NCBI GenBank assembly: GCA_965238075.1
Contig: OZ250173.1
Span: 2,368,001 to 2,432,000, forward strand
Origin: Candidatus Entotheonellaceae bacterium
Lineage (GTDB): Bacteria > Tectomicrobia > Entotheonellia > Entotheonellales > Entotheonellaceae
Length of the DNA stretch: 64,000 nt
Reading direction: 5' to 3'
The notes beneath the pieces are model-generated. The model was not told the DNA's origin, ran no database searches, and was given only the letters and a program-made list of their open reading frames with translations. Positions 2,433-14,188 of this stretch are shown here, one piece after another. The number at the start of each line of letters is the position of its first letter. The first letter of the stretch is position 1. Position numbers and translations under genes: made by a program.

Positions 2433-2531
2433 TCTTGCCGGGAAATTTTCATACCGTCTTTTCTGTTACCGCACGGTATGGTAGATTTCTCCATTACACG
2501 AGAGATAGTCGCAATAACGTCATGTCCTCGT

Positions 2532-2566
2532 TGCCCCCACTGGTTCATATGGGGGCATTCTTTTTT
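2532..2566 (+). terminator. Intrinsic terminator hairpin
   Basis: TGCCCCCA-loop-TGGGGGCA followed by TTCTTTTTT. Confidence 0.75.
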
Positions 2567-2614
2567 GGCATCATCATTGTGCCTCACACCTCCTTCCCCG
2601 GAAACCAGCATCCG

Positions 2615-5206
2615 ATGTCTTCACCCCTGACGCTCCTGGAGCACTCACGCCCTGCCATACCGGTTGAGGCGATGCGCACGCTGCTGATCTGCCGCGGGCC
2701 CATTGCCTTCGAGACACTGGAGGTGTATCGCCGCCGGGGCTGGTTGCTGCCCCATGCCGTGGTGTCGTCCAAGGAATGGATTGCCGATGGGCGCCGCGCC
2801 GCGCCATGGATCGCCGACTTGCCGACCGACCACGTTCACTACGCGCAGGAATACGACGACGTCGATGCCATCCTGCACGTCGCCGCGCAGCACGGTATTG
2901 ACGCCATCTATCCGGGCTACGGCTTTCTGGCGGAGAACGCCGACTTTGCCGCGCGTGTCGAAGCGGCCGGGCTGTGCTTCATCGGCCCGACGGCGGCCAC
3001 CCTGCGCGCCGTTGGCGACAAGGATGCGGCCATCGCGCTGGCCCGGCGGCTGGACATTCCCACCATCCCCGGTGACGATGCCCTGGTCGGTTTTGCGCGC
3101 TCTGCGGAGCAGGCAGCCATTGCCGCGGAGACGGTACGCCGCACGCTCGCCATGGCGGCGCAATATCCTGGGTACCCCATTCGCCTCAAGCATCCGGGCG
3201 GCGGCGGCGGCAAGGGACAGCGGGTGCTCAGTGCCGAGGAATTGGACGGCTCGCGGGCGCCCGACGTCATCCGCGAGGCGCTGGCCAAGGTGTGGTCGGA
3301 GATGGGCGTTTCGCCGTCGCAGGCCGACGCGCGCAAGGGTGTACTGATCGAGCTTGACATCCCCCGCCCGCTGCACTGGGAGGTGCAGATTTTTGGCGAC
3401 GGCGAGACTGTTGTCCACTTCGCGGCCCGCGACTGCTCGGTGCAGAATCACGGCTACCAGAAGTTCATCGAGATGGCCCTGCACCCACAGGCCATCGCTC
3501 AGGAGATACAACGCCTCGATCCCAAAGCCGACGCCGAACGCATCGGCAGCCTGTGCCGCCGCCGGCAGACTCTGGAGCGCATTTGTGCCGACGCTCAGCG
3601 CCTGGGCCAGGCGGTGCAGTTGCGGGGCGCGGCGACCGTTGAGTTTCTGGTGGATGAGCAGGGTGAGCCGTACTTCCTCGAAGTCAACCCGCGCATCCAG
3701 GTCGAGCACGCCGTCACCGAAGGCATCGCGCGCGTGCGCGGCGAGCCAATCAGCCTCGTCGAGATGCAGCAGCGCGTGGCGGCGGGGGAGCGGCTGGCGT
3801 TCGACCAGCGTGACATCACCTGCGTCGGCGACGCCATCGAGGTGCGCCTCAACGCCTGGCACGAGGACCTCAACCCGGTACTCGGCGGTGTCGTCCATGC
3901 CTTGCGCTGTAACCTGCCGCCCGAGCTCGGCGCCTACGTCCGCATCGACGCCGGCGGCTTGCAGGCGCGCCGGCAGCCGTGGGTTGTACCCAGCTACGAC
4001 GCCAATTTCGCCCTGATCATCGTTCACGGGGCCGACCGCCACGAGACCTTGGAGCGTCTTGTCAGCGTCCTGCAGGACGGCCTGGAGGTGCGCGGGGACG
4101 ACGAGTTGCAGACCAATCTCCAGCCCATTCTGGGACTCGTAACCCTGATGCGGGCCTTGCCTGCCGAGACCGCCTTCCGCACCGATACCAGCCTCCTGTG
4201 GATGGCCCTCACGGCCATCGTCGAGACCCAGAAATCGGCCGTGCTGGCGCGCGTTCCCCGCTATCCGCGCCGCCCGACGCCAAACCATCCGGCTCTCGTC
4301 GCCCGCTTGCTGGGCGCCACGTTGGAAGCCGGTTTCGCCCATCCCAGCCGCTTGCTGGCGTTTTATCTGAAGCGCCTGACGCAGCCTCACAAGCGCCCGT
4401 TGACGACCCTTGAGGTGCTCTGGCAACTTGCCGCCAAGCTGGACGTGCCGCTATTTGAGGAGGAGCGCCGGCGCGGCCTCGCCCTGCAACGGGCCATGGG
4501 CGCGCTATGGGAGGCCGTCGGGTGTTCCGGCAAGCGGCTGAGGGCCCTCGCGTGCGCCGCCGTCGCCGGGCGTCTGGAGAACGAACCGGTCTACGCGTCG
4601 CTGCTCGAACAACTCACTGCGCCGCCTTCGAATCTGTCCGATCAGGAAGCAACCGCCCTGCTCCAGGAATTGCTTGGCTGGCTGACCGCCGAGGCGCCGG
4701 CCATGACCGGCCTCATCGAAGCCCTTGAGCGCACGCAGATTCACGACTGCCTGACGCACAACGCCGATCTTTCCCTGTCTCGTCCGGTCTATCTGCGAGA
4801 CGCGGGTGCCATTGACCACCTGACGCGGCTCCTCAGCCGCAGCCTGCGGCCCGCCGTGCTGCGTCATGGCGAACTGCTTTCTCCCATGGAAGCCACCATT
4901 TACCACTACCCGGAACCTGGCGCTCCGCCGTTTGTAGAAGTCGGTGCAGAAGTCAAGGTGGGGCAGACGCTGGCTCTGCTGGAGGCGATGAAGATGTTTA
5001 CCGATCTGCCCAGCCCGGTGGACGGCGTGGTGATGGAGATTCGGGTTGAAAACGGCCAAGGGGTGAAGACGGGCACGCCGTTGTTCCGAATCGCCACCCA
5101 CGACGCCGTGGCCGAGACCTCGGACGACCATCTGCACGGGGTGCTCGAAGCGCCGTGGCGCAATCGGTTCGGCTTGCTGGTACCCGGCGAAGCGACGGAA
5201 GCGTGA
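2615..5206 (+). CDS. Biotin carboxylase fused to a C-terminal biotin carboxyl carrier domain (acyl-CoA carboxylase alpha-like subunit)
   Basis: YPGYGFLAENADF, GGGGGKG ATP loop, FLEVNPRIQVEH, C-terminal EAMKM biotinylation site; start placed at ATG 2615 because the upstream frame crosses a terminator. Confidence 0.85.
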   Translation: MSSPLTLLEHSRPAIPVEAMRTLLICRGPIAFETLEVYRRRGWLLPHAVVSSKEWIADGRRAAPWIADLPTDHVHYAQEYDDVDAILHVAAQHGIDAIYPGYGFLAENADFAARVEAAGLCFIGPTAATLRAVGDKDAAIALARRLDIPTIPGDDALVGFARSAEQAAIAAETVRRTLAMAAQYPGYPIRLKHPGGGGGKGQRVLSAEELDGSRAPDVIREALAKVWSEMGVSPSQADARKGVLIELDIPRPLHWEVQIFGDGETVVHFAARDCSVQNHGYQKFIEMALHPQAIAQEIQRLDPKADAERIGSLCRRRQTLERICADAQRLGQAVQLRGAATVEFLVDEQGEPYFLEVNPRIQVEHAVTEGIARVRGEPISLVEMQQRVAAGERLAFDQRDITCVGDAIEVRLNAWHEDLNPVLGGVVHALRCNLPPELGAYVRIDAGGLQARRQPWVVPSYDANFALIIVHGADRHETLERLVSVLQDGLEVRGDDELQTNLQPILGLVTLMRALPAETAFRTDTSLLWMALTAIVETQKSAVLARVPRYPRRPTPNHPALVARLLGATLEAGFAHPSRLLAFYLKRLTQPHKRPLTTLEVLWQLAAKLDVPLFEEERRRGLALQRAMGALWEAVGCSGKRLRALACAAVAGRLENEPVYASLLEQLTAPPSNLSDQEATALLQELLGWLTAEAPAMTGLIEALERTQIHDCLTHNADLSLSRPVYLRDAGAIDHLTRLLSRSLRPAVLRHGELLSPMEATIYHYPEPGAPPFVEVGAEVKVGQTLALLEAMKMFTDLPSPVDGVVMEIRVENGQGVKTGTPLFRIATHDAVAETSDDHLHGVLEAPWRNRFGLLVPGEATEA

Positions 5207-8773: not shown

Positions 8774-9328
8774 TTATCGGCAACGATTTTCGCTCAGGAT
8801 GGCGGCGAGCGCGTCCGCGTACGCCTCGTATGTCCGGTCGTCAAAAAGGACGAATCGCACCAGTTGCGGCTGGCCATGCAGCCGCAGATAGGCTGCCACG
8901 GTGTGCAACGCGATGTGAGCGGCTTGCTGTAGTGGGTAGGCATAGGCGCCGGTTGAAAGCGAAGGGAAGGCGAGGCTGGCGCATTGCTGGGCGCCAGCGA
9001 TTTCGAGACTGCGCCGATACGCGCTTGCCAGTAACGATTCCTCCTGATTTTGCCCATCTTTCCAGATCGGTCCTACGGTATGAATGACGTATCGTGCCGG
9101 CAACTTGCCGGCTCCGGTGACGACCGCGTCTCCCGTTGGACAGCCTTGCGGATAACGTCGCTGCGTCTCTTCCATGATGCCGGGACCGCCGCCGCGGTGA
9201 ATGGCGCCGTCCACACCCCCGCCTCCGGCGAGCCGACTGTTGGCTGCATTGACGATGGCGTCGGTCGCCTGGCGGGTAATGTCGCCGGTGACCAATTCCA
9301 ATTTGCATGCGTCGATGGTTGCCTGCAT
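8774..9328 (-). CDS. Macro domain protein (O-acetyl-ADP-ribose deacetylase / ADP-ribosylhydrolase, YmdB-like)
   Basis: GDIT, AIVNAAN, GGGGVDGAIH, VIHTVGP, FPSLSTGAY. Confidence 0.93.
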   Translation of the reverse strand: MQATIDACKLELVTGDITRQATDAIVNAANSRLAGGGGVDGAIHRGGGPGIMEETQRRYPQGCPTGDAVVTGAGKLPARYVIHTVGPIWKDGQNQEESLLASAYRRSLEIAGAQQCASLAFPSLSTGAYAYPLQQAAHIALHTVAAYLRLHGQPQLVRFVLFDDRTYEAYADALAAILSENRCR

Positions 9329-9465: not shown

Positions 9466-12400
9466 ATGCCGTTTCAGGACGTCCCCGCCAAAGTTGACGA
9501 CTACGCCAAACAGGAACACGAGGTGCTGCAGTTGTGGAAAGACACCGACGCTTTCCAAACCCTGCGCACCTTGCATGCCAGGCAGCCGAAATGGTCCTTT
9601 CTGGACGGGCCGGTGACGGCCAACAACCCGCTCGGCGTGCACCACGGCTGGGGGCGGACGTACAAGGACGTGTTCAACCGTTTCTGGACCATGCGCGGCC
9701 GGGAACTGCGCTACCAGAACGGTTTCGATTGCCAGGGGCTATGGGTCGAGGTGGAGGTGGAGAAGGAACTGGGCTTCCGGTCCAAGCGCGACATCGAAAC
9801 CTACGGCCTGGACGCCTTCGTGCGCAAATGCAAGGAGCGGGTGTTGCGGTTTGCCGCCGTGCAGACGGAACAATCCATACGGCTGGGCTATTGGATGGAC
9901 TGGAACGACCCGGATCACTTGCGCGAGTTGGCTACCGCTTTAATGGAAAATCCCTCGCAGCGCATGACCGTGCAGGGCCCTCGAGGCGAGGTGACGGACA
10001 CTGCGGAGCAATTGGTCGGGCGCCTGGGCATGCCGGACCTCGGCGGCAGCTACTTCACGTTCTCGAACGAAAACAACTACATGATCTGGTCCTTCCTCAA
10101 GCAGTGCTGGCAGCGCGGCTGGCTGTACCGCGGCGCCGACGTGATGCCGTGGTGCTCGCGCTGCGCCACCGGCATCAGCCAGCACGAGATCGTCACCGAC
10201 GGGTATCAGGACCTCACCCACACGTCCATGACCCTGCGCCTGCCGTTGCGCGGGCGGCAACGGGAATCCCTGCTGGTGTGGACCACAACGCCCTGGACGC
10301 TGCCCAGCAACGTGGTGGCGGCGGTTGGCCCGGAGCTCACGTACGTCAAGGTCAGACAGGGCGACGAGGTGTTCTATCTGTCCAAGGGAACCCTGCACAT
10401 GCTGCGCGGGGCGTATGAGGTCCTGGGCGAGATGCCGGGCTCGATGCTCAAAGGCTGGACGTATGACGGCCCCTTTGATCACCTGGAGGCGGCTCGTCAA
10501 CCCGGCGGCAACGGCGCCCTGCGGGACCTCGCGCAAGACGTGTCGGCATGCGCCGCCGAGGCGCACCGCGTTGTGTTGTGGGATGAGGTCAGCGAGACCG
10601 AGGGGACCGGCATTGTGCACGTCGCGCCCGGCTGCGGCGCCGAGGACTTCCGGCTGGGCAAGGAGCACAACCTGCCGATTCTGGCCCCCCTCGACGAGGA
10701 AGGATACGTCCTTGCCGGCTTCGGCGACTTCACCGGCCAGCACGTCTCGGAGCTTCTGGACGGCATCCGGCAGACGCTCACCGACTCGGGGCGCCTGTAC
10801 CACGTCGAGCCCTACACGCACCGTTACCCGACCTGCTGGCGCTGCGCCACCGAGCTGGTCTTTCGCCTGGTGGACGAGTGGTTCATCAACATGGACGAAT
10901 TGCGCCACGCCATGATGGAGGTAACCAAGCAGATCCGCTGGATTCCCGCCTTCGGCCTGGACCGCGAGCTCGACTGGCTGCGCAACATGCACGACTGGAT
11001 GATCAGCAAGAAACGCTACTGGGGCCTGGCCCTGCCGTTCTGGGAATGCGCTGCCTGCGGCCATTACGAGGTGATTGGCGATGACCAGGAACTCGCGGTG
11101 CGGGCGGTGGCGGGCTGGGAGGATTTCGAGGGGCACACTCCTCACCGGCCGTACATCGATGCGGTCAAGATCGCCTGCTCAACGTGCGGCGGCCAGATGC
11201 AGCGCATCACCGACGTGGCGAACCCGTGGCTGGACGCCGGTATCGTCAGCTTCAGCACCCTGGGTTACCGCACCGACCGCGAGGCGTGGCGCGATTGGTA
11301 CCCGGCGCACTGGATCAGCGAGTCATTCCCCGGCCAGTTCCGCAACTGGTTCTACAGCCTGCTGGCCATGGGCACGGTGCTGGAGAACAGCCCGCCGTTC
11401 AAGGAATGCTTCGGGTACGCCACGCTGATTGCCGAAGACGGGCGGGCGATGCATAAGAGTTGGGGCAACGCCATCGAGTTCAACGAGGCCGCTGACCGCA
11501 TGGGTGTCGACGTCATGCGCTGGTTGTACTGCGCGCACAAGCCCGAGAACAATTTACCATTCGGTTACCAGCGGGCCGATGACGTGCGCCGGCAGTTCCT
11601 CATTCCGCTGTGGAACATGTACAGCTTCTTCGTCACCTACGCGAATCTCGACGGCTGGGAGCCCGGCCGGGAGGGATTCGAGCCCGGACGCCCGGAGGGC
11701 TCGACGCCGCACAGCGACAACATCCTGGATACGTGGATTGTGGCGCGCCTCAACCAGGTCACGGAGCGCTGCACGACAAGCCTGCAGGACTCGGACACGC
11801 ACGCCGCTACCCTGGCCATCGCGGCGTTTCTGGACGATCTGAGCAACTGGTACATCCGCCGCAGCCGCCGGCGCTATTGGAAAAGCACGCACGACGCGGA
11901 CAAACACACGGCCTACGCCACGCTCCACCACGTGCTGGTGAAACTGATCAAGCTTCTCGCACCGCTGACGCCGTTCGTCACCGAGGTGATGTACCAGAAC
12001 CTGGTGCGCGCCATGCAGCCGGGGGCTTATGACAGCGTGCATCACTGCGATTGGCCCGAGGTGGATGCCGTTGTCGTGGACACCACGCTGCTGGACCAGA
12101 TGGCCCTGGCCCGGCAGATCACCAGCCTGGGGCTGGGATCCCGAGGCAGCGCCAATATCAAGGTGCGCCAGCCCCTGGCGGCGGCGTTGGCTTATGTGCA
12201 GGAGGGTGAGACGGTGTGGAGCGAGACGTACACGGCGATTGTGTGCGAGGAGTTGAACGTCAAATCGCTGCAATTTGTTGAGCACGAGGTGCAGCTGCTG
12301 AGCTATGAGGTGCTTCCCAACAATAAGCTGCTCGGTCCGCGATTGGGGGCGGTCTTGCCCCATGTACGCGCGGCGCTGACCCATATCGATCCGGGAACGG

Positions 12401-12855
12401 TAGTGCAGCAGGTGCAGTCCGGCAATCCCGTGACGCTGACCGTTGACGGTGAGGTGTTGGAGCTTGCCCCCGACGAGGTGCTCATCCGCACCCACCCCGC
12501 CGCCGGGTTGGCGGTCGCCACCGACCGCGGCGTCACCGTTGCCGTGGAAACCGACATCACCCCGGCGCTGCGCACCGAAGGCTTGGCCCGCGAGCTGGTA
12601 CGCCGGATTCAGGTCATGCGCCGCGACGCCGGATTCAACATTGCCGACCGCATCGTTACCTACGGCCTCTGCGAGGGGCCGCTGGCCGACGCTCTGCTCA
12701 CCTGGAGCGATTACCTCAAGGCCGAAACCCTCAGCACCGACCTCGTCGCCAGTGCGCCTCCCCCCGAAGCATACAGCGAGGAGCACCGTATCGACGGTAT
12801 GACCATCATGCTCGGCGTGCAGCGCCAGGCGGCTGCCGCGTCACCGGGTGTATAA
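9466..12855 (+). CDS. ileS: Isoleucine--tRNA ligase, type 2-like, with non-canonical signature motifs
   Basis: DGPVTAN, GFDCQGL, WTTTPWTLPSN editing domain, GTGIVHVAPG, DWMISKKRYWG, KVRQPL and type 2-like C-terminus (EGLARELVRRIQ). Confidence 0.95.
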   Translation: MPFQDVPAKVDDYAKQEHEVLQLWKDTDAFQTLRTLHARQPKWSFLDGPVTANNPLGVHHGWGRTYKDVFNRFWTMRGRELRYQNGFDCQGLWVEVEVEKELGFRSKRDIETYGLDAFVRKCKERVLRFAAVQTEQSIRLGYWMDWNDPDHLRELATALMENPSQRMTVQGPRGEVTDTAEQLVGRLGMPDLGGSYFTFSNENNYMIWSFLKQCWQRGWLYRGADVMPWCSRCATGISQHEIVTDGYQDLTHTSMTLRLPLRGRQRESLLVWTTTPWTLPSNVVAAVGPELTYVKVRQGDEVFYLSKGTLHMLRGAYEVLGEMPGSMLKGWTYDGPFDHLEAARQPGGNGALRDLAQDVSACAAEAHRVVLWDEVSETEGTGIVHVAPGCGAEDFRLGKEHNLPILAPLDEEGYVLAGFGDFTGQHVSELLDGIRQTLTDSGRLYHVEPYTHRYPTCWRCATELVFRLVDEWFINMDELRHAMMEVTKQIRWIPAFGLDRELDWLRNMHDWMISKKRYWGLALPFWECAACGHYEVIGDDQELAVRAVAGWEDFEGHTPHRPYIDAVKIACSTCGGQMQRITDVANPWLDAGIVSFSTLGYRTDREAWRDWYPAHWISESFPGQFRNWFYSLLAMGTVLENSPPFKECFGYATLIAEDGRAMHKSWGNAIEFNEAADRMGVDVMRWLYCAHKPENNLPFGYQRADDVRRQFLIPLWNMYSFFVTYANLDGWEPGREGFEPGRPEGSTPHSDNILDTWIVARLNQVTERCTTSLQDSDTHAATLAIAAFLDDLSNWYIRRSRRRYWKSTHDADKHTAYATLHHVLVKLIKLLAPLTPFVTEVMYQNLVRAMQPGAYDSVHHCDWPEVDAVVVDTTLLDQMALARQITSLGLGSRGSANIKVRQPLAAALAYVQEGETVWSETYTAIVCEELNVKSLQFVEHEVQLLSYEVLPNNKLLGPRLGAVLPHVRAALTHIDPGTVVQQVQSGNPVTLTVDGEVLELAPDEVLIRTHPAAGLAVATDRGVTVAVETDITPALRTEGLARELVRRIQVMRRDAGFNIADRIVTYGLCEGPLADALLTWSDYLKAETLSTDLVASAPPPEAYSEEHRIDGMTIMLGVQRQAAAASPGV

Positions 12856-12883
12856 CGATTTCGTCCGCGGGAGGAGAAAAATC

Positions 12884-14188
12884 ATGCCAATGGACAAATC
12901 CTCACCCTCGAATGCCCCGGATCTCCACGAATTCTTCGCCGCTGACCCGCTTGCAGCGGACTACACTTTCTTTGGACGCGAGTCGTACGCCGACCGGCGC
13001 GGCTTTCTGCGGGGCGCCGGGCTTGCCGCCATGGCGGCGATGGTGGGTGCAGCGATCCCGTTCCACCACAACATGCCGGCAGGATTCATCCCGGCCGCAT
13101 TCGCCGACGAGAACGTGCTGGTTGGGAAGGACGGATTGACGCTGCTGAACGACCGGCCGGTCAACGCCGAGACCCCACCGCATCTGCTGGACGACTCGAT
13201 CACCCCGACCCCTCGCCATTTCATTCGCAACAACGGCATCCCGCCATCCGAAGTGGCTCCGAACACCTGGACGCTTACCGTCGACGGACTCGTCCACCGT
13301 CCCATGACCTTATCGATTGCTGATCTTCAGTCGATGTTCGAGGTTGTCACGATGGCCCTTGCCATCGAATGCGGGGGCAACGGGCGGGCCTTTTTCAACC
13401 CGCCGGCAAGGGGCAACCAGTGGACCTACGGCGCGATAGCCTGTTCGGAGTGGACGGGAGTGCGACTCAAGGACGTGCTGGAGGCGGCTGGCGTGCAGCC
13501 CAACGTTGTCTACACCGCCCACGTCGGCGGTGACGCGCATCTCTCCAGGCAGCCGGACAAGCTTCCCATCTCGCGCGGCGTTCCGATTGCCAAGGCGATG
13601 ACGGACAACGTGCTCATCGCCTTTGGCCAAAACGGCGGCCCGATTCATCCGATGAACGGGGCGCCGCTGCGCCTCGTCGTCCCCGGCTGGCCGGGGTCGT
13701 GCTCGCAGAAATGGCTCCGGCGCATCTACCTCCGCGATGTCGTCCACGATGGGCCCAAGATGACCGGCACCTCGTACCGCGTGCCGCGCTACAAGATCGA
13801 GCCGGGCGAGAAGGTCGACAAAAAAGATTTCGTCATCATCGAACGGATGCCCGTCAAATCCCTTATTACCCATCCCGCGAACGGGGTGGAGGCGGGGCGC
13901 GCCGTCGAGGTGCGCGGTCATGCCTGGTCGGGGGACCGGACGGTCACCGCCGTCGATGTCTCCTATGACTTTGGTGCGACCTGGATGCCGGCCACGCTCG
14001 ATGCTCCCGCCAACGATGGTGCTTGGCAGAACTTTCGCGCCAACGTGGTGCTGCCCGCAGCCGGGTACTACGAAGTCTGGGCGCGGGCGACCGACAGCGC
14101 CGGGGTGATGCAGCCCCACGCCATCGACTGGAATGCCAAGGGATACCTCAACAACACGATGCACCGGGTCGCCCTTCGGGTATCGTGA
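12884..14188 (+). CDS. Sulfite oxidase-family molybdoenzyme (SoxC/SorA/SorT-like), Tat-exported
   Basis: Twin-arginine signal RRGFL, FIRNN, Mo-ligand Cys in IECGGN, GAPLRLVVPGWPG, ARATD, GYLNN; GGAGGAG RBS. Confidence 0.92.
   Translation: MPMDKSSPSNAPDLHEFFAADPLAADYTFFGRESYADRRGFLRGAGLAAMAAMVGAAIPFHHNMPAGFIPAAFADENVLVGKDGLTLLNDRPVNAETPPHLLDDSITPTPRHFIRNNGIPPSEVAPNTWTLTVDGLVHRPMTLSIADLQSMFEVVTMALAIECGGNGRAFFNPPARGNQWTYGAIACSEWTGVRLKDVLEAAGVQPNVVYTAHVGGDAHLSRQPDKLPISRGVPIAKAMTDNVLIAFGQNGGPIHPMNGAPLRLVVPGWPGSCSQKWLRRIYLRDVVHDGPKMTGTSYRVPRYKIEPGEKVDKKDFVIIERMPVKSLITHPANGVEAGRAVEVRGHAWSGDRTVTAVDVSYDFGATWMPATLDAPANDGAWQNFRANVVLPAAGYYEVWARATDSAGVMQPHAIDWNAKGYLNNTMHRVALRVS

Follow-up and report, generated by a model that had tools for sequence, protein, structure and literature searches.

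Swapped HIGH motif and remodelled KMSKS loop as inherited hallmarks of a type 2 isoleucyl-tRNA synthetase in a Candidatus Entotheonellaceae bacterium

The window analysed here is a stretch of 64,000 nucleotides from Candidatus Entotheonellaceae bacterium (assembly GCA_965238075.1, contig OZ250173.1, positions 2,368,001 to 2,432,000 of the forward strand), in which the open reading frame list places ileS at 9466..12855 (+ strand, ATG start), encoding a 1129-residue type 2 isoleucyl-tRNA synthetase (IleRS) that is the sole one of its genome. The frame scored 672.9 bits against the NCBIfam equivalog TIGR00392 (cut-off 621.4), which identifies it as an IleRS, and 344 bits against the valS model, under that model's own cut-off of 612.1. 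Pfam recognised tRNA-synt_1, Anticodon_1 and DUF5915, with the anticodon-binding domain (PF08264, 95.3 bits) at aa 755-906 (11728..12183, +) and DUF5915 (PF19302, 153.1 bits) at aa 924-1120 (12235..12825, +), the latter forming a type-2 C-terminus where IleRS1 has a zinc-binding one; Pfam listed no other C-terminal family. The translation also holds an intact WTTTPWT (10279..10299, +), which we take to be the threonine-rich editing-site motif of CP1 and whose T273, T274 and P276 do not vary across a 34-row clade alignment, as well as cysteine pairs, seen in both the translation and that alignment.

An AF2 model of the protein (mean pLDDT 90.5) found its top fold matches in Priestia megaterium IleRS2 (Foldseek, 8c8v/8c8w, TM 0.84 on target) and also matched T. 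thermophilus IleRS, with Foldseek ranking the IleRS structures in the same order as a phmmer search against solved structures (PmIleRS2, E 1.2e-189; T. thermophilus IleRS, 4e-175; PmIleRS1, 7.6e-59). Together with the DUF5915 C-terminus, these structural neighbours and the tree neighbours, which are IleRS2 and not IleRS1, bear out the original prediction of a type 2 enzyme. P. megaterium IleRS2 (PDB 8C8V, 8C8U, 8C8W) is thus the best match in both sequence and fold, and one of its mutants carries an identical GVHH in the same place, yet it shares only 32% identity with the window enzyme and its wild type has HVGH and KMSKS. It also lacks an insertion of about 46 aa at residues 149-195 (9910..10050, +), which is visible as a break in the phmmer alignment (query 150-196 against chain 147-147), lies between the first Rossmann-fold half and CP1, and is predicted by AF2 to form a helix, a beta-hairpin and a helix (block pLDDT 91-96). 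An insertion of about 50 residues was seen in 31 of 80 named relatives, as counted from a table.

At the HIGH position, the enzyme carries GVHH (G57-H60; 9634..9645, +), a version of the class I HIGH/HXGH motif in which positions 1 and 3 have traded places. In the phmmer alignment these residues lie without any gap around the motif on the HVGH of wild-type P. megaterium IleRS2 (8c8v, 8c9d) and on the identical GVHH of the engineered mutant 8c8w, so that the Gly comes first and the two His third and fourth within the HXGH site itself, as G/AXHH is defined. H59 and H60 are invariant in the 34-row clade alignment and G57 is at least 90% conserved, and G/AxHH was read in 119 of 121 proteins (the query and 120 homologues), the search pattern having failed on the remaining 2.

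The second altered signature is AMHKS (A661-S665; 11446..11460, +), which aligns on, and replaces, KMSKS, here too with no gap near the motif; nt 11416-11490 translate to YATLIAEDGRAMHKSWGNAIEFNEA. The positions originally given for both motifs match the translation exactly. Relative to KMSKS, the first Lys is lost and the Ser has become His, and the second, catalytic Lys is retained as K664: it pairs with its KMSKS counterpart in the phmmer alignment, and the clade alignment shows it at least 90% conserved. Counting along the alignment's chain numbering, which reproduces the published His582 and Lys593, places T653 (11422..11424, +) at the position of PmIleRS2 His582 and PmIleRS1 Phe586, the residue that stacks on the adenine or monic acid part. 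Because the same GVHH and AMHKS letters recur in 5/5 other genomes of the genus and in 2/2 genomes of a second genus, they are neither chance strings nor read errors.

The altered loop is widespread among relatives, with xMHKS (x being P, A or E) found in all 121 proteins of the query and its 120 closest homologues. Among 80 named species loci, which span Chloroflexota, Planctomycetota, Patescibacteria, Bathyarchaeota, Fidelibacterota and others, xMHKS is present in 68, and the third loop residue is His in 73. The AMHKS changes are therefore a lineage-wide remodelling of the KMSKS loop common to hundreds of enzymes in many phyla, and no private compensation. A literature search found no relevant mention of xMHKS: the text and one supplement of PMC10485003 do not contain MHKS, although its Fig 2b, an alignment of KMSKS motifs from ancestral nodes, may show the variant uncommented, and the text of PMC13752280 does not mention the KMSKS motif.

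Around ileS, the genomic neighbourhood is chromosomal and conserved. Its divergent neighbour is a gene for a Macro-domain protein (8774..9328, -; PF01661), which adjoins ileS in 5/5 same-genus loci and 2/2 second-genus loci, and downstream lies a molybdopterin oxidoreductase gene (12848..14188, +; PF00174 and PF03404), which, read from its listed GTG start, shares 8 nt with the end of ileS and which sits beside ileS in 4/5 same-genus loci. Transposase, integrase and plasmid genes were absent from the 15 neighbouring ORFs, and the GC content of ileS (0.645) is close to the 0.63-0.64 of its flanks; the non-mobile context originally proposed thus holds for the gene as it stands today. A search of positions 1-25000 of the window gave no Rfam match at gathering score for a T-box or other leader RNA 5' of ileS. 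A profile search of the 3.35-Mb genome (one contig, 93% complete) returned only one ileS above cut-off; the other three matches were considered as a second copy and rejected as ValRS (952.9 bits), LeuRS (1045 bits) and MetRS (872.7 bits).

To place the enzyme, we turned to the published description of IleRS2 in PMC10485003 (Brkic 2023, Nat Commun 14:5498), whose main text reports G/AXHH in 86 of 163 bacterial IleRS2 and a minor IleRS2 clade with a GXHH-carrying ancestor (node 747). In our trees the query groups with IleRS2, inside a clade (clade A) of 31 of the 118 tree rows, all of them xxHH, with support of 99-100. At the level of description, clade A fits the published account of the minor clade as the smaller one, entirely GXHH and with Chloroflexi and Planctomycetota sequences among its members; from the all-GXHH state and the Chloroflexota and Planctomycetota content we infer that the two are probably the same. 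The window IleRS most likely belongs, then, to the minor clade with ancestral GXHH. This runs against the suggestion that GVHH is a special property of this organism, since by that account an entire IleRS2 clade descends from a GXHH ancestor and the motif is common among bacterial IleRS2. GVHH and AMHKS are real, and this gene has inherited them as hallmarks of a large enzyme lineage that had been described before.

It had also been proposed that AMHKS is a compensatory change, one that restored catalysis once GVHH had replaced the canonical HIGH motif, and the distribution of loop and motif across the 118 tree rows speaks to this directly. In 25 rows the third loop residue is His, and this is the case in none of the rows that keep the first Lys (0/76). 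In favour of compensation, the His never accompanies HxGH (0/35) and is present in 19 of the 31 xxHH rows of the minor clade. The loop change may also have followed the swap, because the earliest-branching row of the minor clade combines GVHH with KMSKS in our midpoint-drawn, unrooted trees. In the major clade, however, 30 of 31 xxHH enzymes retain the first Lys and the loop His is absent from all 31; xMHKS is not required for GXHH. Nor is replacement of the first Lys by His obligatory, given 15 rows in clades A and B that have neither (e.g., PFSKS, PMSKS). Published kinetics, as given in the main text of PMC10485003, point the same way: the IleRS2 of Deinococcus radiodurans, naturally ALHH, resembles canonical enzymes in catalytic efficiency, and engineered GVHH swaps into KMSKS enzymes impair KM or kcat by no more than about 10-fold. 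Moreover, the same type of loop, EMHKS, accompanies an unswapped HxGT in 120/120 crenarchaeal IleRS, and a single clade for all 19 His-bearing rows (a group named after the tree had been seen) was rejected at p-AU 1.6e-12. A test of co-evolution between the loop His and either the HIGH state or the first Lys was non-significant; because it found only 4 informative independent pairs on supported branches, with a median p of 1, we claim a nested pattern and no significant co-evolution. The loop is thus uncoupled from GXHH, and we regard compensation as unlikely.

Two further readings concern the gene as a whole. Were it a dedicated resistance or self-resistance copy, recently acquired and mobile in the manner of mupA/mupB or of a producer's immunity ileS, one might expect its partial matches to the MupA and MupB NCBIfam models (522 and 521.3 bits) and a gene phylogeny at odds with the host phylum. 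Those scores lie far under the models' exception cut-offs of 1900, however, and this is the only ileS in its genome, with flanking genes conserved across the genus, a GC content near that of its flanks and no mobile genes close by; the same type also occurs in two genera, which indicates an old transfer, so that a recent resistance copy is very improbable. The deviation of both class I signatures from the textbook consensus could alternatively mark a decaying or catalytically dead paralogue with eroded motifs. That this is the sole ileS, as a full-length open frame with a confidently predicted fold, a conserved H59, H60 and K664, motif letters identical across genus relatives, an editing motif and cysteine pairs makes this reading scarcely credible. 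The frame at 9466-12855 is instead very probably the only functional housekeeping IleRS of its host, most likely of the minor IleRS2 clade, with inherited swapped motifs.

For such a housekeeping IleRS2, the link between G/AXHH and mupirocin hyper-resistance on which the original prediction drew is real in PMC10485003, whose main text reports that G/AXHH raises the mupirocin Ki up to about 1000-fold and that the third-position His sits where the first His of canonical enzymes would be, takes over its part in forming Ile-AMP and clashes with mupirocin. Hyper-resistance of the window IleRS, predicted from major-clade enzymes and engineered mutants, is a fair extrapolation. The third-position His of GVHH would take the role of the first His in Ile-AMP formation and would clash with mupirocin; strong insensitivity is therefore predicted from the role and clash published for the GXHH form. 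Where it is present, the His at loop position 3 may stand in for the lost first Lys, because it occurs solely in loops without that Lys. It might also add to inhibitor insensitivity, because it lies beside the backbone NH to which the carboxylate of mupirocin binds in IleRS1. Taken as a whole, the original prediction is partly supported: it is borne out as regards a type 2 enzyme, a sole copy, a non-mobile setting and the published resistance link, and is not supported as stated as regards an organism-specific trait and a compensatory loop, while hyper-resistance of the enzyme itself is an extrapolation.

Comparison with characterised enzymes shows how far this extrapolation reaches. The IleRS2 of D. 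radiodurans (ALHH) and of Streptomyces griseus, as described in the main text of PMC10485003, share with the window enzyme the type 2 architecture, a HIGH motif swapped at positions 1 and 3 and the status of sole housekeeping copy, and their published hyper-resistance mechanism should carry over. In contrast to them, the window IleRS most likely lies in the other, GXHH-ancestral clade and is marked by AMHKS, by a Thr at the His582 position and by the 46-aa insertion, with only 31-35% identity to its major-clade relatives. The plasmid-borne, mupirocin-resistant MupA and MupB are type 2 relatives as well, but the window gene is chromosomal. The window gene is accordingly one more housekeeping IleRS2 with a published swapped HIGH motif and no special natural resistance determinant. 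Its GXHH-ancestral clade, which spans Chloroflexota, Planctomycetota, CPR bacteria and several archaeal groups, combines an altered KMSKS loop, mostly xMHKS, with the loss of the stacking residue, aromatic or His, that contacts adenine and monic acid elsewhere. Because this clade apparently has no characterised enzyme in the literature, the mechanism as published was worked out in active sites of another make-up.

The crenarchaeal enzymes (Aeropyrum camini, Stetteria hydrogenophila, Acidilobus, Staphylothermus and relatives) share with the window IleRS the missing first Lys, the His at position 3 and the second Lys of the loop. They differ in their unswapped HxGT, in an 'HGF' before the loop as in IleRS1/IleRS-A, and in forming a separate clade; the relatives of the archaeal xMHKS query were Crenarchaeota, not Micrarchaeota. 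As judged from alignments and trees, crenarchaeal IleRS appear to have gained EMHKS independently of the bacterial-dominated minor clade, and this independent gain would give the loop a bearing on class I synthetase enzymology and on sequence-based prediction of mupirocin sensitivity. We tentatively suggest, as a speculation that is less likely than not, that xMHKS is an undescribed convergent solution of the KMSKS loop with at least two origins, one in the minor IleRS2 clade and one in crenarchaeal and other archaeal IleRS, occurring only without the first Lys and with an already non-canonical HIGH (GXHH/HxGT). The His, directly ahead of the NH that holds the mupirocin carboxylate in sensitive enzymes, may replace the phosphate or loop-closing role of that Lys and act as a second, independent determinant of insensitivity to natural products of the mupirocin type. 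PMC13752280 reports that one archaeal IleRS-A, MaIleRS-A, is unexpectedly mupirocin-resistant, without an explanation, whereas WaIleRS-A, another of the three archaeal enzymes assayed there, is sensitive, and we infer that the crenarchaeal IleRS correspond to its IleRS-A clade. If true, the convergent-loop suggestion could bear on this unexplained resistance of an archaeal IleRS-A.

The new point of this analysis is a probable horizontal replacement of ileS. The evidence on the host phylum is thin: the GTDB phylum is small, with only 17 species genomes, and in the cluster of a homologue with 88% identity two proteins come from MAGs labelled Candidatus Tectomicrobia, MAG labels being of a kind that can err. 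On these grounds an Anaerolineae host, to which the names of homologues had pointed, was rejected. Within the 17-genome phylum, genera g1 and g5 have GVHH with AMHKS, g3 and g6 have HYGH with KLSKR, and g4, g7 and g8 have IleRS1. The query group is sister to Anaerolineae sequences with 100% local support, inside a Chloroflexota-dominated clade. The ileS of the window is probably an old horizontal replacement of IleRS1 from a Chloroflexota/Anaerolineae-like donor, and we take the transfer to be old because the same IleRS type is present in two genera.

Translation of the window frame recovered both altered motifs where the original prediction had placed them. The ileS gene occupies positions 9466-12855 of the forward strand as one long frame of 1129 aa, in which GVHH forms residues 57-60 (nt 9634-9645, among the 24 protein letters, not shown, encoded by 9604-9675) and AMHKS forms residues 661-665 (nt 11446-11460, within 11416-11490, which translates as YATLIAEDGRAMHKSWGNAIEFNEA). 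The protein scored 672.9 bits against the NCBIfam ileS equivalog (cut-off 621.4), fell far under the cut-offs of the ValRS, LeuRS, MupA and MupB models, and possesses tRNA-synt_1, Anticodon_1 and the type-2 C-terminal domain DUF5915. Searching all PDB chains with phmmer ranked four Priestia megaterium IleRS2 entries at the top (E 1e-187 to 1e-189), followed by Thermus thermophilus IleRS (E 4e-175), with IleRS1 structures at ~1e-57. The alignments were gap-free around both motifs, such that GVHH pairs with HVGH of the wild-type P. megaterium enzyme and with GVHH of its engineered hyper-resistant mutant (8c8w), while AMHKS pairs with KMSKS. GVHH thus stands at the HIGH position, and the enzyme is indeed a type 2 IleRS with a swapped HIGH motif. 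Counting from the chain numbering of the phmmer alignment, a count that recovers His582 and Lys593 of PMC10485003, His663 falls at the position of Ser592, K664 is the second, catalytic Lys of the loop, and Thr653 lines up with His582; in IleRS1 the corresponding residue is Phe586, which stacks against the monic acid moiety of mupirocin (PMC10485003). An AlphaFold2 model from a 34-row alignment (mean pLDDT 90.5) matched wild-type 8c8v and mutant 8c8w at TM 0.84 and the T. thermophilus structure 1ile at TM 0.92, both on target length. Relative to P. megaterium IleRS2, the window enzyme also carries an insertion of ~46 aa (residues 149-195, window 9910-10050) that is predicted to fold as helix, beta-hairpin and helix (block pLDDT 91-96); of the named relatives, 31/80 (from Chloroflexota, Bathyarchaeota, Planctomycetota and other groups) have a form of it ~50 residues long, and it is missing elsewhere in the clade.

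This gene appears to be the sole ileS of its host. The genome, a single contig of 3,352,321 bases and 93% complete, was checked for a second ileS and yielded none over the model cut-off; three weaker matches were ValRS (952.9 bits), LeuRS (1045 bits) and MetRS (872.7 bits). Conservation across relatives speaks against a dead or eroded gene, which might also show altered signatures: H59 and H60 never vary in the clade alignment, conservation reaches at least 90% at G57 and K664, and the editing-site threonines and cysteine pairs are likewise conserved. Both motifs are identical in 5/5 further genomes of the genus and 2/2 of a second genus, so this explanation is for practical purposes excluded. 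The ValRS of the same genome (L119:1085-4510, reverse strand) is 1142 aa long against an 860-position model that it matched in 3-4 separate stretches, and it therefore contains one or more large insertions.

The G/AXHH swap of HIGH was already described by Brkic et al. 2023 (PMC10485003), and GVHH here is therefore a known, frequent state. Their 379-sequence tree held 86 bacterial IleRS2 with G/AXHH and 77 with HXGH, in two clades, of which the minor one had an ancestor (node 747) that was already GXHH (PMC10485003). The natural ALHH enzyme of Deinococcus radiodurans had a mupirocin Ki of 6.6 mM, which dropped 823-fold once HVGH was restored, and introducing GVHH into the enzymes of T. thermophilus and P. 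megaterium raised Ki ~200- to 430-fold, with KM or kcat impaired by at most 10-fold; in the swapped motif the third His occupies the site of the first and would collide with mupirocin (PMC10485003). By analogy, the window IleRS is predicted to be hyper-resistant to mupirocin, a reasonable extrapolation to its clade. The text of that paper mentions no KMSKS-loop change, and the string MHKS is absent from it and from one text supplement, the motif alignment of its Fig. 2b being unreadable.

To establish how far the loop variant extends, we evaluated three samples. Among the 120 closest homologues (65-97% identity) plus the window IleRS, G/AxHH was found in 119/121, the other 2 not being readable by pattern, and xMHKS, the loop that lacks the first Lys, has His at position 3 and keeps the second Lys, was found in 121/121 (PMHKS 69, AMHKS 37, EMHKS 15). 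A second sample took the best 150 rows from 1.84 billion representatives searched by HMMER without filters, aligned with the window IleRS, and kept 118 full-length rows with both motifs readable (33 were dropped for being <900 aa or for gaps at a motif). With motif columns excluded, FastTree and an IQ-TREE analysis of a 64-row subset both revealed three groups, clades A, B and C. Clade A comprised 31 rows including the window IleRS, all xxHH: 19 had His at position 3 of the loop, 9 lacked both the first Lys and the His (e.g., PFSKS, RISKT, PMSKS) and 3 kept the first Lys. Clade B held 19 rows (3 HxGH and 16 HxGT or HxGN, with xMHKS in 6 of those 16), and 7 of its 13 looked-up rows had named clusters, all archaeal. 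Clade C (68 rows) corresponds to the major IleRS2 clade together with eukaryote-like enzymes, and its xxHH rows kept the first Lys in 30/31 and had the loop His in 0/31. For the third sample, one genome per GTDB species was scanned with the clade A alignment, giving at least 598 relative-encoding stretches among at least 600, and loops were read in the best 80. Here 68 had xMHKS (E 28, P 28, A 7, D 3, G 2), 5 more had the position-3 His in other loops (PMHKN, EMHYS, EMHGS twice, VIHKT), 3 had no loop His (KFSKT twice, RMSKT) and 4 were unreadable. These loci, mostly from MAGs such that single labels may be wrong, were assigned to seven Chloroflexota classes, Thermomicrobiota, several Patescibacteria phyla, Planctomycetota (including Kuenenia stuttgartiensis and Planctomicrobium piriforme), Bathyarchaeota, Nitrososphaerota, Nanobdellota, Woesearchaeota, Fidelibacterota, Acidobacteriota, Actinomycetota, Armatimonadota, Cloacimonadota, Myxococcota and Clostridia. 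The window IleRS belongs, as an ordinary member, to a large lineage that is already published and from which both motif states are inherited; what interest remains attaches to the xMHKS loop as a convergently evolved class rather than to this gene. Several odd states were also seen: two Actinomycetota MAG loci (L097, L104) and protein P0235 carry AVHT or AIHT in place of HIGH with loop EMHGS, and thus are without the catalytic second Lys. Two further states each stand alone in the clade: a Chloroflexota MAG locus (L051) has GVAH with PMHKS, and an Actinomycetes MAG locus (L075) has GVHH with EMHYS, without the second Lys; these last two may be errors, paralogues or real variants.

Searching with an archaeal xMHKS row of clade B (P0193) listed 120 proteins at 51-100% identity, with named relatives from Desulfurococcales, Acidilobaceae, Aeropyrum camini, Stetteria hydrogenophila, Caldisphaera, Staphylothermus, Pyrodictiaceae and Thermoprotei. 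All 120 of the listed relatives have EMHKS and 119 have HxGT (one was not readable by pattern), and the loop is the housekeeping state in cultured hyperthermophiles; 'HGF' precedes their loop, as it does in IleRS1. An IleRS-A clade of archaea, near IleRS1, was defined in a 2026 paper, and one of its members, MaIleRS-A, proved unexpectedly mupirocin-resistant (PMC13752280); we infer that clade B is this clade. A constraint that made the 19 His-bearing rows of the 64-row set monophyletic, a group named after the tree was seen, cost 772 log-likelihood units (p-AU 1.6e-12). Given the separate clades and the rejected constraint, sequence comparison indicates that the xMHKS loop arose at least twice.

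That the AMHKS loop compensates for the swap, as had been suggested, was not supported: in the major clade, xxHH enzymes function with an unmodified loop, in natural proteins and in laboratory-made swaps alike, and xMHKS also arises without a HIGH swap. A paired-lineage test of loop against HIGH, with 4 usable pairs on supported branches, gave a median p of 1, and the evidence argues against a specific loop-swap coupling. What recurs in clades A and B is a nested pattern: a non-canonical HIGH motif is the common background, a subset has lost the first Lys, and the His is confined to that subset; overall the loop His occurs in 25/118 rows, in 0/76 with the first Lys and in 0/35 with canonical HxGH. 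Our preferred, though doubtful, reading is that the His, two residues past the lost first Lys, might take over part of that residue's role, and any such replacement would not be obligatory because 15 rows lack both residues. The His also directly precedes the backbone NH of the second Lys, to which the mupirocin carboxylate is hydrogen-bonded in IleRS1 and from which it lies 4.1 A off in IleRS2 (PMC10485003), so an effect on inhibitor binding is conceivable.

Homologue names by themselves would suggest an Anaerolineae host, a reading set aside because the GTDB phylum of the genome is so small (17 species genomes, 3 families, 8 genera) and because the cluster of an 88%-identical homologue holds two MAG proteins labelled Candidatus Tectomicrobia. 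Evaluating this phylum revealed three kinds of ileS (loci L009-L016, L022, L023, L025, L030-L033). The GVHH plus AMHKS gene occurs in genera g1 (6 genomes) and g5 (2 genomes), a type-2 ileS with HYGH and KLSKR (~33% identical) in g3 and g6, and IleRS1 in g4, g7 and g8, genera that between them cover all three families. As each of the 5 phylum genomes tested has one ileS over the cut-off, these kinds point to repeated replacement of an essential gene. Horizontal replacement is usual for synthetases. In a tree with named loci, the window group is sister (100% local support) to Anaerolineae and Chloroflexota sequences, inside an almost entirely Chloroflexota clade. The simplest reading is that, long ago, the ancestor of g1 and g5 exchanged an IleRS1 for a horizontally acquired ileS of Chloroflexota type, a direction that rests on an unrooted tree and MAG labels.

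The non-mobile context proposed for the gene was confirmed, with no mobile-element gene among the 15 ORFs around ileS. These have ordinary functions (ABC permeases, a biotin carboxylase fusion, CNNM and MgtE transporters, a Macro-domain protein, a molybdopterin oxidoreductase, UbiA, enoyl-CoA hydratase, ThiI and others), and GC is 0.645 in ileS against 0.63-0.64 in the flanks. The Macro gene adjoins ileS in 5/5 same-genus and 2/2 second-genus loci, and the oxidoreductase in 4/5 same-genus loci. No Rfam family, T-box included, was found in window 1-25000. The listed GTG start of the oxidoreductase overlaps the final 8 nt of ileS (window 12848-12855); possible explanations are co-transcription of the two genes or a true start located further downstream. 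A 923-aa frame (window 2435-5206, forward strand) joins biotin carboxylase N-terminal and ATP-grasp domains to a C-terminal biotinyl/lipoyl domain, with the ATP-grasp match split into two stretches.
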